Shown in pieces: positions 3,132-19,720 of a stretch of 39,619 bases of DNA. The first letter of the stretch is position 1. The number at the start of each line of letters is the position of its first letter. A program made the translations under genes and the position numbers. The notes under the pieces were generated by a model. The model did no database searches. It saw nothing but the letters and a program-made list of their open reading frames with translations, and had not been told where the DNA came from. The stretch comes from Dimargaris cristalligena (Eukaryota), in the NCBI GenBank assembly GCA_003614675.1, contig ML002349.1, positions 1-39,619 on the forward strand. Reading direction: 5' to 3'.

Positions 3132-3332
3132 ATGCGTACCATGTTCGTTATCCCCACTCTGATGGCCTTCACTGCCATGATTTTCTTTGTCACCGTGACT
3201 GCCGCCCCCGCCGCACCTCGCAAGAGTGGTTCGATTAGAGAGAAAGCGGGTCGTTTTGCTAACTCCGCCGTAGGAACCGCAATGATTGGCGCAGGTTTCA
3301 GCGCTGGTATAACTAAAGTCACGAGCCCCTAA
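3132..3332 (+). CDS. Small secreted cationic peptide precursor, 66 aa, paralog A
   Basis: ATG in CCAAAATG context. Sequence: MRTMFVIPTLMAFTAMIFFVTVTA (signal peptide) + APAAP + RKSGSIREKAGRFANSAVGTAMIGAGFSAGITKVTSP. Frame is preserved in two paralogs. AATAAA at 3487. Confidence 0.85.
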   Translation: MRTMFVIPTLMAFTAMIFFVTVTAAPAAPRKSGSIREKAGRFANSAVGTAMIGAGFSAGITKVTSP

Positions 3333-3486
3333 TCTATTTTATGTCAACTTCTCTGTCATTGCCAGCCCACTTTCACGGTCTCTGAACAACTTGGGTTGCC
3401 ATGAGTGATCCGTTTATAGCCGTCGATACCCCAGGTTGACGGGTTATTTTTACCCGGTCACACTTGGTGGCGCAACCAGCATTAAC

Positions 3487-3492
3487 AATAAA
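3487..3492 (+). terminator. AATAAA polyadenylation signal of peptide gene A (also 16772-16777 and 19624-19629 in paralogs)
   Basis: CAATAAAAC is conserved at the equivalent position in all three copies although the 3' UTRs are diverged. Confidence 0.6.
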
Positions 3493-5212
3493 ACTCTATC
3501 TACTGCGTGAACGAAGTCGTGTATATGACTATACTAGGTCTAATCAACATAATTGGATTACGCGTATCTCTCATCTGATGATAATTGCGGCAAGTTTTAT
3601 GATATGGGGGAGACTTGACCTGTCTGTATAATGAAAGTTTCGATTGGTACACGGGGATTTACTGGTTAAAAAAAAATCCTCCTCCCAGTTTCCCGTATAT
3701 ATACATCTATATGACTTAAACTTTAATACAGTTGAATTAAATTCCATCTGTATCGATTGGGCAATGCTAGTCACTATCAGCTATATGTTTAGGAGCAACC
3801 CTGTTAGTGATGATCAGGTATGGATGTCATAACAGTATCGTTAAAATTGGCTGACCTCTTGCCTGATACTCAAGTGTAAAGCCAGAATTGACCCATATAT
3901 ATTTATATGGCATGCCATATAATGTTACTTTTTGTTGAAGATTAATCTCTCAATGTCCTTCCGCCCTCCGGAAATGAGGCAATTAAATTGAGAAAGTCGT
4001 CCGTAAAGGTAGAGCAGTCTGCCTTCCCGCGGCTGTAGTATTGGATGCACGAGATGGAGACGGTATTGCTCAGCTTATAAATAATCTACAGTCATATTTT
4101 CGGACAATTATGCCTAAGGATCGGCAGAGAAGTTAAATTCGGGTTGACATTGCACCATGGGTGGGGGCCACAGTGATTTAGTGTTAGGAATGGCCAATAA
4201 TTGCCAAGGGGCATTAATACAGGCGAGTCATATTATTCCTTGAACTATTGGCCCACTCCCTTTTAATGGCTATTCAGAACATGTCGTTCTACGCAACCAG
4301 TTGCGGGGAGGAGAACACATTCAGAAATATGTTACCTGAGGCATTCCATGGGAATACTCCCAGTCCGTGTTCGGGATAGTTGGTTACAACTGTGCTGGGA
4401 TGGCCGTCCCCCAGTGGCAACTTCCTACCAAGACTCACCTAAAGTACTATTCTGAGGTCCTTGACATGTTTCGGCGACCGTTTGGTTCGTCAGCACTTTA
4501 CAAAATTGGTGTGTTTCTCTCACATGGAAATTGCTACCTGCCACTCGACCATGTAATAATGCGTTAGCCAATTATAAATACCTCCCTAGCCAATGTAAAT
4601 TTTAAAATCCCAAATGAATATTTTATACAACAGTAATTCTTCCAGGGTTAAGTACGGTAGATCGCATTTATCTCTTGTTCCTGACTATAGTATTGGGTAA
4701 GTAGCGAACCATGCCGAAATACTGCAGCTTTTCATTCGAATTCCCGCCAGCGGCCCTAATTTCATCTGCAAATGGTATTGTCACCTTAAGCGGATTTCCA
4801 TTTTACTCTCTTGGGATTTGGCTGATATGCAGCAGATTAAAAATTATGCAGCTATATGGGCGTGTATGAGTGCATACGGCATTGAATTTGACGGCAGGCA
4901 ATACCCGGAAGTCTCGCGTTCATGAGTAATGGGGCACTTGCTACTTAACCCGTACGTAATTCCCCTCAATTGAATCACGCGCTAACCACAATATTTGAAT
5001 TTTGGATTTATATTATGGCAAAAGTCCCATATGTCATGAACAGCTAGAAAATACACCAGAATGTCGTGCTTAGGAAAAGGTCAAATGTATACAGTATTGT
5101 AAGGAAGAGCTGTAAAGCCGACCATGTCCGGTCGCTCATGTTCGGCACTCAGGGATTATTATGGTCATGTCTGTAACCGTTACCTTCTTGGTGCTCATTT
5201 TTTTTTTTCAGG

Positions 5213-16264: not shown

Positions 16265-16414
16265 CCGGCCGGCGGTCTCTCTTAATTACATCATTAACAA
16301 CATCCACACCTCCATCGCCTGCGTATTCATTGACTTCCATTTCCCTTGCAACCTTCCGCTCTTTACTCAATCCACCATTACCCATTCCATCACCATTACC
16401 GTACCCAAGCCAAA

Positions 16415-16615
16415 ATGCGTACCATGTCCGTTATTCCCACTCTGATGGCCTTCACTGCCATGGTTTTCTTGGTCGCTGTGACTGCAGCCCCCGCCGCACC
16501 TCGCAAGAGTGGTTCGATTAGAGAGAAAGTGGGTCGTTTTGCTAACTCCGCCGTAGGAACCGCAATGATTGGCGCTGGTGTCACCGCTGGTATAACTAGT
16601 GCCATGGGCCCCTAA
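16415..16615 (+). CDS. Small secreted cationic peptide precursor, 66 aa, paralog B
   Basis: MRTMSVIPTLMAFTAMVFLVAVTA-APAAP-RKSGSIREKVGRFANSAVGTAMIGAGVTAGITSAMGP; 55/66 aa identical to paralog A. Confidence 0.87.
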   Translation: MRTMSVIPTLMAFTAMVFLVAVTAAPAAPRKSGSIREKVGRFANSAVGTAMIGAGVTAGITSAMGP

Positions 16616-17979
16616 TCTACTTTACAACAATGGCCCTGCCATTATTAGCATACTTCCATTTGGTCACAGAGCAATTTGGGTTGCCATGAGTGATCATTTT
16701 ATAACCAGCGATGCCCCTTGTCGACAATCTAGTTTTACTATGTTGCAGTTTGCGGCGCACACAGCCTTCACAATAAAACCCTATCTACTTTAAGAACGAA
16801 GTCTTTCATGAATATACCAGTTGTAGTCAACAGCACGCTCTACATGTATATTTCATTTGAGGTCAATTTCGGTGGGTTCAATGGCAATATTTCGTCCAGC
16901 TTTATGGTCAATAGCTCAGTGCAATGAAGCATGCTGCTTAGCAACGGTCTGACATAGACGTTGCACTGGCTCAAGTAAGATTGTTTGACCCCTGATACTC
17001 ATGAGCGGGGCTATAATTGCCCAGTTCATGATTTAATATTGTTGTTATAATCGGGTCCGGGTGGTTTGGCCAGGGAATGAGGGGAGAGAAGGTCAACCCG
17101 AATTTAGCGCGACCTCAAGTGATCGAGGCTGACTCTTAGCTCGCGGAAAATGGCATATTGGCCGAGTTGGAAGAGGATGTTTTGGTGGGGGATGCGATCA
17201 CTCTTCCAGGCAAGAGAGGGTAGGAAAATGGGCATCACAAAACTGGTGGTAAATATAGGAGAAGCAGTTATGTATTGTTGAGGAATAACCAAAACCGGTG
17301 GCGACTTCTGGGAAACTCTAAATATAATACGTTAATAAGGTGAAGATGCCGTCTATTTAAAGAACAGCTGGCCCTATTACTTATATTTTGACGTATCATA
17401 GTACTAAGGCGGCTGTGATTAGTACTAGGCTGAAGAGCACACGGATAATAGTTGGATAATGCTAGGATAGAGTTTGACTTATTCAATACTATGCTAGAAG
17501 TACAAATTTGAAGTTATGTAGTTTTTTCTTGTATTATCGGGCATACAGGGCCGATAGCGAACCATGCCTTCCTTCAAATTTCTCCTCAAGTAATAAAAAT
17601 CACTATTAAATGCTCAAACTAAATGGTATATAGAACGAGTATATTTGAAATTGAGATTGCAGTTGGACACTTCTCCATTCCTGGAATTTACTGTTTATAC
17701 TTGCTACCCATAGAGTGGATTAGCGTACCCTTGAATAGAACTCCAATATTATAGCATGGTATACTATTAATATTTTTTGTATTGGGCTAGTAATTATTAT
17801 AGATACCCCTTTTCCCGGTGTTTTCCAATTTTTTGGGTACGTACTTGTTACTTTGAGGAAACTGCCCTAGAGCTATTAAAGTATAGAGATAGATAAACAG
17901 CATATCCACTACTCTACATTTTAAAAATAGAAATAGCTGCATTGAAAGATTTCGACACATTTGAAATGATATAAAAATT

Positions 17980-19720
17980 ATGTATTTGCAATGGCCAACA
18001 GTCAGTATTTGAAATATGAGACAGTCGACGGGGGGCTAACTAACCTAGAAAGGCGGCAAGGGTACTGGTTGTGACTACTGGGGTCCATTCTACCGCGTGC
18101 AACTGAGCCAGCTTCCAATAACTCGAGGGGCTAACGGCTCAACGGCAAGACAAACAAGCACACTAAAATACTAAAAATCCAATGCCTTTGCGATCAACCC
18201 TCATTATTTGACCACCGTCTGGCGACGGCCCTGTCAATCTAATTTAACTCAGTATTATCCATTGCTTTCCCCCCTTCTCCTTTTATTGGCTCGACTTCCC
18301 CCCTTCTTTTCCACTCCGCCATTCATCTCCAACGGGTCTACCCGCACCCCTGCTCACGGCCCACCAGCCCCTCTTTGGCCGTTCTTGAGGAGCTACCCAG
18401 CAGCCATCCTCCTCGATCCTTTACCGATTGTCGGTTGTTTGAATGCCATTCAAAGGACAGCTCCATTGCCCACCTAATAGTAGAGATTGGATAAATGATG
18501 AAGGCGGAGGGATATGTTAAAGGGAAAGGGGATAGTAAAATTGACTTTGGTATTGACTTCCCTGTTGCTAGCCAGCAGCATGGCTTGAATGATATAAAGC
18601 GGTGTGGGCTACTTCCTTGACTCAACTATATAGGAGCAGTCGTGCTGCTCAATGAGTCGACTTGTCTAACACGACTTGATGGGGACTAGCGCCAAAAGGA
18701 CGGAGTTTGGGAGTTGTATTAGTCCATGGGGATACTTCCAGAATACGAAAAAGAAGCGAACCGTTGGTGGCAAACACCTGACTGCTCAAAATATATTATA
18801 TTGCATTTTGTTCATGTACAACAGCGGTGTGCTAATGGCGAACTGAGCCCGATCACCTGACGTTCAATTTAATCTAATCCCCCACGCGAGAAATCCCGAG
18901 TATCCGCTACTATGGGCCATGTGGTTCGGATGACCGTGAATCGGGGCCCGGGCGGAATAGACGAGTATTCGGCAGCGACAGAGTTGGTGAGTTTAGTTCA
19001 AGGGTTGGACTCCCCCATGGAAAGATGGGCACATAATAGTAGCTACCAAAGACCCGTCTAGGGGCGATAACATGTATTAGCATGAAATTCCCCAGTTGTA
19101 TTGTCAAAGTTGAAAAACCCGGGCGGTGATCTCTCCTAATTTTATTAATAGTAACAATCACGTCTCCTTCGCCTGTATACTCTTCGACTCCCATTTCCCT
19201 TACAATCTTCCTCCCTTTACCGAATACTCCATTACACATACTATCATCATCTTCGTACTCAAGCCAAAATGCGTACCACGTCCATTATCCCCGCCATAAT
19301 GACATTGACTGCCATGGTTTTCTCGATCGTCAGGACTGCCGCTCCCACTCCACAAAAAACCAGGAACGCTTCGGTTAGGAATATAATTGCTACTACTAAC
19401 ATTATCCCCGTTAAGGCCGGAGTAATGCCCCCTCCTAACGGCAACACTATTTAAGTTATGGGCGGTCAATCCATTTTGTGACAGCGGCTCTGCCCTTGCC
19501 GGCCTACACCCGTGGTCTTGGAACAGCGTGGGTTGCCATGCGTGGTCAGTTTAAACCCGTTGATACCCCTCGCCGACAGTCTATTTTTACAGTGTCGCAA
19601 TTGGTGGTGCATCCAGCCCTCTCAATAAAACCCAATATACGCAATGAGCAAAGTGATGTATAAGGAATACACTAGCTCTAAGCATAATAATCGGAAAAGA
19701 TGTATCTCCCAGGTTAGAAT
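17980..19720 (+). repeat. Segmental duplication copy C (tandem with B)
   Basis: Same conserved upstream blocks, ORF and polyA signal as A and B, but more diverged. Confidence 0.88.
19269..19454 (+). CDS. Divergent paralog C of the secreted peptide, 61 aa (possibly degenerating)
   Basis: Same AAGCCAAAATGCGTACC start context and a homologous signal peptide; the mature part is diverged. TAA at codon 62 corresponds to AAA (K62) of paralog A. Confidence 0.65.
   Translation: MRTTSIIPAIMTLTAMVFSIVRTAAPTPQKTRNASVRNIIATTNIIPVKAGVMPPPNGNTI

Follow-up and report, generated by a model that had tools for sequence, protein, structure and literature searches.

Within a 39,619-nt stretch of the genome of the fungus Dimargaris cristalligena (assembly GCA_003614675.1, contig ML002349.1, positions 1-39,619 of the forward strand; the window in what follows) lie three very short open reading frames (ORFs), named here A, B and C, each carried by one copy of a repeat unit of about 1.7 kb. 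The best explanation we can offer, and one we hold tentatively, is that they form an orphan family of mini-genes, missing from the annotation, whose small, Cys-free, cationic peptides this mycoparasitic fungus would secrete, and that segmental duplication, gene conversion and a rapidly changing mature part gave the family its present form. The layout of the genes, their coding signature and the evolutionary history of the copies come directly from the DNA and are described first; secretion and processing of the A and B peptides are predicted from their sequences. At present we regard A, B and C as an orphan candidate-effector family.

An earlier note on this DNA had placed three Cys-free ORFs of 61-66 amino acids (aa) at 3132, 16415 and 19269, and translation returned exactly these positions, all on the plus strand, with no Cys in any of the three. 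The features on which the analysis rests are as follows.

3132-3332, plus strand: peptide ORF A, 66 aa by translation; codons 1-24 signal-like, 25-29 APAAP, 30-42 basic, 43-66 Gly/Ala-rich tail
16415-16615, plus strand: peptide ORF B, 66 aa by translation, layout as in A
19269-19454, plus strand: peptide ORF C, 61 aa by translation
1896-3604, plus strand: repeat unit A, segmental duplicate of ~1.7 kb carrying ORF A (nhmmer; repeat families D1-D12)
15211-16891, plus strand: repeat unit B (nhmmer; repeat search)
18041-19747, plus strand: repeat unit C, following unit B after 1.15 kb (nhmmer; repeat search)
2972-2980, plus strand: TATA-like element of copy A, GATATGAAA, degenerate (read from sequence)
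16255-16263, plus strand: TATA-like element of copy B, GATATAAAA, intact (read from sequence)
19108-19117, plus strand: TATA-like site of copy C, AGTTGAAAAA, degenerate or lost (read from sequence)
3487-3492, plus strand: AATAAA of copy A, 155 nt past the stop
16772-16777, plus strand: AATAAA of copy B
19624-19629, plus strand: AATAAA of copy C
3377-3518 (A), 16662-16803 (B, 75%) and 19514-19655 (C, 73%), plus strand: conserved 3′ block (repeat family D2, alignment), taken as 3′ untranslated region (UTR)
2962-3318, plus strand, with its partner at 16245-16601: A-B high-identity tract, which starts at the TATA-like element and reaches about codon 62; interpreted as the product of gene conversion

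Peptides, repeat units and gene signals

The three ORFs sit in copies of one and the same direct repeat. A nhmmer profile built from the alignment of the three repeat copies found units A, B and C as its sole matches within the window, each at E = 0, and a tblastn search of the window with peptide A returned the three ORFs only, plus chance-level rows at E 2.0 and 2.8. Peptides A and B are 83% identical and follow the order of parts that the earlier note had described, from a hydrophobic, signal-like N-terminus through APAAP and the basic segment RKSGSIREK[A/V]GRF to a Gly/Ala-rich tail. The net side-chain charge of residues 30-66, which we recomputed, is +5 in A and +4 in B, as had been stated. 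The similarity of C to A and B is limited to the N-terminal ~37 residues (43% identity, tblastn): its signal-like N-terminus is conserved, and its mature part is divergent, contains Pro, carries a charge of +4 and has neither the RKSGSIREK motif nor the hydrophobic Gly/Ala tail. The proposal of a three-member paralogous family is thus upheld far beyond chance by the three repeat copies, but C shares the N-terminus only, and the family consists of two like members and a divergent one.

Each ORF is also set among recognisable gene signals. At ~160 nt before the ATG there is a TATA-like element, and the leaders that follow it contain 8-9% G and are free of ATG in all three copies; the nearest upstream ATG is 157-233 nt away from the start, and the ATG of the ORF is in every copy the first one after the TATA-like element. 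The start context, aagccaaaATGCGT, is identical in A, B and C, and the distance from stop to AATAAA is 155-170 nt across the copies. The statement that a promoter and a polyadenylation signal were copied along with each ORF is correct at the level of sequence: AATAAA and the start context are present in all three copies, and the TATA-like element is intact in B, degenerate in A and lost in C.

Two further elements of the repeat were seen beside these signals. An upstream block, TCCCCCGTGGAAAAATTGGC..., occurs ~200-250 nt before each ATG (2876-2932, 16157-16213 and 19011-19067, plus strand; repeat family D10), is 77-82% identical and is a candidate for a shared cis-regulatory element. The 3′ block contains a conserved downstream ATG (GCCATGAGTGAT; GCCATGCGTGGT in C), whose frame (3391-3429, 16676-16783 and 19538-19663, plus strand) has 35-41 codons in B and C and 12 codons in A. 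We read this region as 3′ UTR and not as a second cistron, because the frames pass through AATAAA.

Coding signature and history of the copies

We take ORFs A, B and C as coding, or coding until recently, because of the codon usage of A and B and the RNY periodicity of all three. In the proposed frame RNY codons make up 31/66 codons of A, 33/66 of B and 32/61 of C, and none of these counts was matched by any of 10000 shuffles (0/10000 each). For the mature part of C alone the count is 21/37, matched by 1/10000 shuffles. Codon usage was scored by a log-likelihood trained on the MSH6 and Hrd1 genes of the window, and under this model frame 0 was favoured over the two shifted models by +14.8 and +24.2 in A and by +17.1 and +24.9 in B. 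These values lie in the lower part of the span given by chunks of the GH16 gene, and the scores per codon of A and B, 0.224 and 0.259, were reached by 2/5000 and 1/5000 shuffles, respectively. When the 109 stop-free stretches of two gene-poor regions of the window were ranked by coding-likeness, those containing B and A came 2nd and 3rd. All three frames begin at the same conserved ATG, and the indels of C keep the frame when the DNA alignment is read with the proteins as a guide.

Other ways of reading the same DNA were tried and set aside. A hidden intron, with a GGTATAAC donor near codon 59 and a CTAAC...TAG pair inside the coding sequence (CDS), was rejected, as the donors are poor and there is no conserved acceptor or second exon; the frame of the conserved downstream ATG, which bears on this idea, ends after only 12 codons in A, and in B and C it continues through AATAAA. 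Overlapping frames, among them one of 154 aa at 16057-16521 in B and the antisense ones, showed no conservation between the copies. The antisense strand of gene A (3006-3338, minus strand) gave a match to the Pfam family UnbV_ASPIC at 22.4 bits, below the cut-off of 23.4, which is probably due to chance, since the same frame in B and C yields nothing. Rfam and tRNA scans gave no match.

The copies have not diverged uniformly. The identity of A and B per 60-column bin of the alignment is 90-98% across 2962-3318 and 22-82% in every other bin. Site patterns inside this tract favour the A-B pair (AB|C 108, AC|B 8, BC|A 9), and those outside it are 201, 174 and 200, respectively, with local patches in which another pair is favoured, A-C at 2015-2134 and B-C at 2725-2843. 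This mosaic of pair-favouring patches indicates ectopic gene conversion, and a gene-conversion tract of ~360 nt has homogenised A and B. The two copies differ at 9/170 nt of the 5′ leader and at 16/201 of the CDS.

Inside the tract, the two leader/signal bins contain 28 and 25 sites, respectively, at which C departs from the A=B consensus, and the mature-part bin has 55/117 (47%); a chi-square computed by hand on the 28/25/55 counts was 15.2 with 2 degrees of freedom, a difference that misalignment of C may inflate. Families of secreted peptides typically combine a conserved prepro or leader region and signal with a variable mature part. The conservation of leader and signal, together with a mature part that is hypervariable with respect to C, is a pattern that goes beyond neutrality. 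Decay of the copies by a process resembling repeat-induced point mutation was rejected, as the transition/transversion ratio of 1.26-1.40 and the observed/expected CpG ratio of 0.76-0.82 are as in neighbouring intergenic DNA. A transposon origin of the repeat was likewise rejected, with no transposon domain in the 109 stop-free stretches of the two gene-poor regions.

Several observations weigh against functional mini-genes, and most of them are shared by the strongest rival explanation, namely that the ORFs are non-functional: open by chance, relics in an old neutral repeat, or parts of a unit that makes a non-coding RNA, with an A-B identity due to conversion only. That A and B are nearly identical does not speak for selection, because gene conversion alone predicts the rate of AB|C sites seen in the tract (~36/120 columns, roughly twice the flank single-lineage rate of ~16), and this arithmetic fits neutrality. 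A and B are separated by 4 synonymous and 12 non-synonymous differences, a ratio of non-synonymous to synonymous rates (dN/dS) of ~1.05, and the differences are spread 4/6/6 over the codon positions, so that purifying selection is not visible. For the signal region versus C dN/dS is 0.6-1.2, and shifted frames are no different; the 5′ leader shows no less conservation than the CDS. The region is G-poor, and long stop-free frames abound in it: in the 450 nt round each ATG five of the six frames are open for 59-116 codons and the sixth for 31-55. Copy C has no TATA-like element, and its codon score of -0.046, matched by 1168/5000 shuffles, is not coding-like. The ORFs are unannotated in the source genome, and the protein searches supplied no homologue to show conservation. 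Yet chance or decay does not readily explain a periodicity that sits in the exact frame of all three ORFs, including C with its 47% different mature part, nor the coding-like codon usage of A and B, the shared conserved ATG and the in-frame indels of C, and an RNA gene has no Rfam family match to speak for it. We therefore consider non-functional ORFs unlikely, though of the alternatives this one has to be taken most seriously.

The predicted product

If the mini-genes are expressed, their peptides would probably enter the secretory pathway. The signal-peptide-like N-terminus that had been noticed earlier is borne out at the level of sequence, in that it has an n-h-c layout, a Kyte-Doolittle value for the N-terminal 19-mer of 2.2 in A and B and 1.8 in C, and an Ala/Pro junction that fits the -3/-1 rule for signal-peptide cleavage. 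In A and B this junction reads V-T-A|A-P-A|A-P, and the rule is satisfied at A24|A25 and at A27|A28. The A-P and A-A dipeptides that follow are of the type removed by Ste13-type peptidases. The KR dipeptide is absent from all three precursors, each of which holds a single core, and only R30-K31 is present. An AlphaFold2 model of B from its single sequence (mean pLDDT 75, pTM 0.45) predicts two helices, at 6-24 and 35-64, with a 10-residue coil between them; the second is modelled as one continuous helix without a hinge (block pLDDT 79-84). Modelling of four copies of residues 30-66 of B gave a score of 0.02 versus a mark of 0.32, which has no bearing on self-association either way.

From these features we propose the following course of events. 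A ~1.7 kb unit would have spread by segmental duplication in a Dimargaritales genome. The hydrophobic N-terminus of its peptide would act as a signal peptide for the endoplasmic reticulum and be cut at the Ala/Pro junction after A24 or A27, and leftover X-Pro/X-Ala dipeptides may then be trimmed by a dipeptidyl aminopeptidase (DPAP) of Ste13 type. The outcome would be a secreted, Cys-free peptide of ~37-42 residues with a charge of +4/+5 and one long helix, and C may be a diverged or decaying member. Most likely such a product would act outside the cell as an effector-type peptide, attaching to the host fungus or to competitors at their surface or membrane. This is the weakest part of the proposal; the peptides possibly bind membranes, and a membrane-directed role is its least secure step.

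The earlier note had gone further and compared the peptides with insect cecropins. Under this explanation the mature parts of A and B would be cecropin-style linear amphipathic peptides that permeabilise membranes, antimicrobial or cytolytic in effect, made from a signal, a DPAP-trimmed spacer, a basic helix and a hydrophobic helix. The order of parts in A and B and their charges agree with it, and a mycoparasite has a plausible use for such a weapon; helix 35-64 is also predicted, with the block pLDDT given above. However, when the three peptides were run against Pfam-A by hmmscan (E <= 10), no match to Cecropin (PF00272), Moricin (PF06451) or a glycine zipper emerged, the sole Pfam match being DUF6280 for B (E 0.038, below the cut-off). 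A sequence search of the PDB gave only flagellin and archaellin, at E above 1, and the 4 rows that Foldseek listed for the B model against the PDB (E >= 6.8 throughout) are helical matches without meaning. One lead came from a language-model Atlas, where B was nearest to a Moricin-like cluster (0.82; 146/256 shared features), but one third of shuffled proteins reach this range, and a search with A produced no usable match and did not reproduce it. The hydrophobic moment of residues 30-47, 0.46-0.49 in A and B, might suggest an amphipathic helix, but it too lies within the range of shuffles: in A, to which the shuffles were limited, shuffling residues 30-66 matched the maximum moment in 18-22% of cases and shuffling segment 30-47 in 11%, and the 5 small-xxx-small pairs of the tail were matched by 6018/10000. 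The modelled helix lacks the hinge, and peptide C, with moments of 0.03-0.23 and prolines, is without this architecture altogether.

The comparison with cecropins and moricins can accordingly be drawn within limits. Like them, A and B have a signal-like part, a short X-Pro spacer, a basic stretch and an Ala/Gly/Val-rich hydrophobic stretch, and their product would be Cys-free, cationic and helical by prediction; they differ in belonging to another kingdom, in giving no profile match, in having no modelled hinge and in an amphipathicity not above that of shuffles. The resemblance claimed for A and B hence reduces to composition and part order and would be at most convergence, and as a description of the whole family it fails with C. 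We consider cecropin-style peptides unlikely. Distinctly unlikely, in our estimate, is the fuller version of this idea, a convergent cecropin-like weapon in which ribosomal, linear, Cys-free, cationic helical peptides of the mycoparasite would permeabilise the membranes of its mould host or of competing microbes, a kind not described from Zoopagomycota and encoded in fast-evolving mini-genes missed by gene finders.

A different fate of the hydrophobic N-terminus would make A and B tiny integral membrane hairpins, with an uncleaved N-terminal anchor, a basic cytosolic loop and the Gly/Ala-rich tail as a second span. Some features of the precursors count against a cleaved signal in the same way as they count for this hairpin. 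In A and B the hydrophobic run extends over ~20 residues, and its C-terminal flank (the loop, +4) carries more positive charge than the N-terminus, which by the charge-difference rule could give an uncleaved anchor; the cleavage context of C is poor, with Arg at position 22. The two modelled helices with a coil between them would also suit a hairpin. The second span is the difficulty, for the C-terminal segment has a Kyte-Doolittle value of only 1.0-1.35, and its rough sum on the translocon scale is +3.9 to +5.5 kcal/mol versus ~0 for the N-terminal one. In C a second hydrophobic segment is missing altogether, and neither a small-membrane-protein family of Pfam nor the glycine zipper was matched. 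We favour a soluble secreted product over a hairpin membrane protein, because the tail is too weakly hydrophobic for a span, and regard the hairpin as improbable. That A and B are precursors of a very short, basic peptide anchored by glycosylphosphatidylinositol (GPI), with an omega site near N44-S45-A46 and the tail as GPI signal, is highly improbable. In its favour, a run of ~20 moderately hydrophobic residues, of a hydrophobicity typical of GPI signals, extends from a small-residue triplet (N-S-A) to the C-terminus in A and B, and in these two copies only; against it, the tail follows the putative omega site directly, with no polar residues as a spacer, a Lys stands five residues from the end in A, the anchored product would have only ~17-20 residues, and C has no tail.

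Relatives, genomic setting and known systems

The suggestion that the family was undescribed agrees with the searches for relatives by protein sequence, family, structure and metagenome, none of which found one. A word-indexed search of 5.8 billion proteins gave 1 candidate and none at E <= 1, HMMER against 1.84 billion representatives gave 0 at E <= 0.001, and a metagenome scan gave 315 pattern matches with 0 confirmed. All of the four queries in an exact look-up in a 15-billion-protein collection, the three ORFs included, were absent (4/4), and a literature search found no paper on such peptides in Dimargaritales.

The genes and the further candidate near the peptide units are listed below.

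7225-7614, minus strand: orphan ORF of 130 aa with a classical signal-like N-terminus, 3.9 kb from gene A
8721-12704, minus strand: MSH6-like gene
20683-22722, minus strand: Hrd1/synoviolin gene

The 130-aa ORF has the top coding-likeness of the 109 stop-free stretches of the gene-poor regions. It belongs to no Pfam family, and in the protein collection it is found solely as the window's own protein, with no other relative; it would be a second candidate for an orphan small secreted protein (SSP). Because this neighbour is present in the collection, a source annotation exists, but it omits the three mini-genes. The window also encodes a GH16 enzyme, ATP11, DAD1, a WD40 protein and CYRI fragments, and the span 3132-19454, from the first peptide ORF to the last, also encloses the unrelated MSH6-like gene.

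On either side of the MSH6-like gene lie two stretches of ~8 kb (1-8720 and 12705-20680; 39-49% G+C) without a recognisable domain in their 109 stop-free stretches; if the peptide units and the 130-aa ORF are set aside, they seem empty by the standard of a compact fungal genome. One of the stop-free stretches, of 101 codons at 13587-13889 on the minus strand, gave a match to the Pfam family BCLP (beta-casein-like protein) at 22.6 bits versus a cut-off of 29.4. As for the Hrd1 gene, the exact sequence of its single-ORF translation (20683-22722) is absent from the collection, where the closest listed relative is 56% identical, and the source genome must either lack an Hrd1 model or have a different one, with another start or an intron, for example.

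The best five of the 120 Hrd1 relatives listed all come from Dimargaritales: Tieghemiomyces parasiticus (56%), Dimargaris xerosporica (52%), Dispira simplex (51%), Dispira parvispora (50%) and Dimargaris verticillata (49%). The window is thereby assigned to this order, whose fungi are haustorial. They are described as mycoparasites (PMC9866270), and since the host organism of the peptide genes is one of them, secreted effectors are plausible.

The orphan peptides may be filed with an already known class, the lineage-specific SSPs, because domain-less SSPs of this kind are very common in zygomycete fungi. According to the data quoted from PMC9391592, lineage-specific SSPs without Pfam matches are abundant there, with 47,494 SSPs in 132 zygomycete genomes and more than two-thirds of the shared orthologous groups without Pfam similarity. 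With 61-66 aa the three peptides lie well under the length limit of that source (<300 aa), and they resemble its SSPs also in the signal-like N-terminus, the lack of a Pfam domain, the restricted distribution and the local duplication. They differ from them in being far smaller than most annotated SSPs, in being Cys-free and absent from public annotation, and in that their secretion is judged by heuristics.

A fungal peptide with which they can be compared is candidalysin, a cytolytic peptide of Candida, which, as given in PMC5784256, is cut by Kex2 from the Ece1 polyprotein at Lys-Arg sites. From what these sources give (PMC8787473, PMC5784256), candidalysin is a ribosomal, linear, Cys-free, helical fungal peptide with hydrophobic and cationic parts, secreted at host contact, and in these respects A-C would be alike. 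Unlike it, A, B and C each encode one peptide behind its own signal-like N-terminus, have no KR site and show no sequence similarity to it. The frog-skin peptides of dermaseptin type and the toxin families of cone snails combine a conserved leader or signal with a hypervariable mature part, as seen here; the likeness comes from a comparison of three copies in which only one contrast is informative, and the difference may be overstated if the mature part of C is misaligned.

If the peptides of D. cristalligena are made and secreted, annotation of early-diverging fungi would be shown to miss very short genes for Cys-free peptides, and the secretomes of mycoparasites would be under-counted. If they are also membrane-active, they would add to a kind of weapon that is rare in fungi, the ribosomal linear peptide, for which candidalysin is the only well-studied fungal case found in our literature search.

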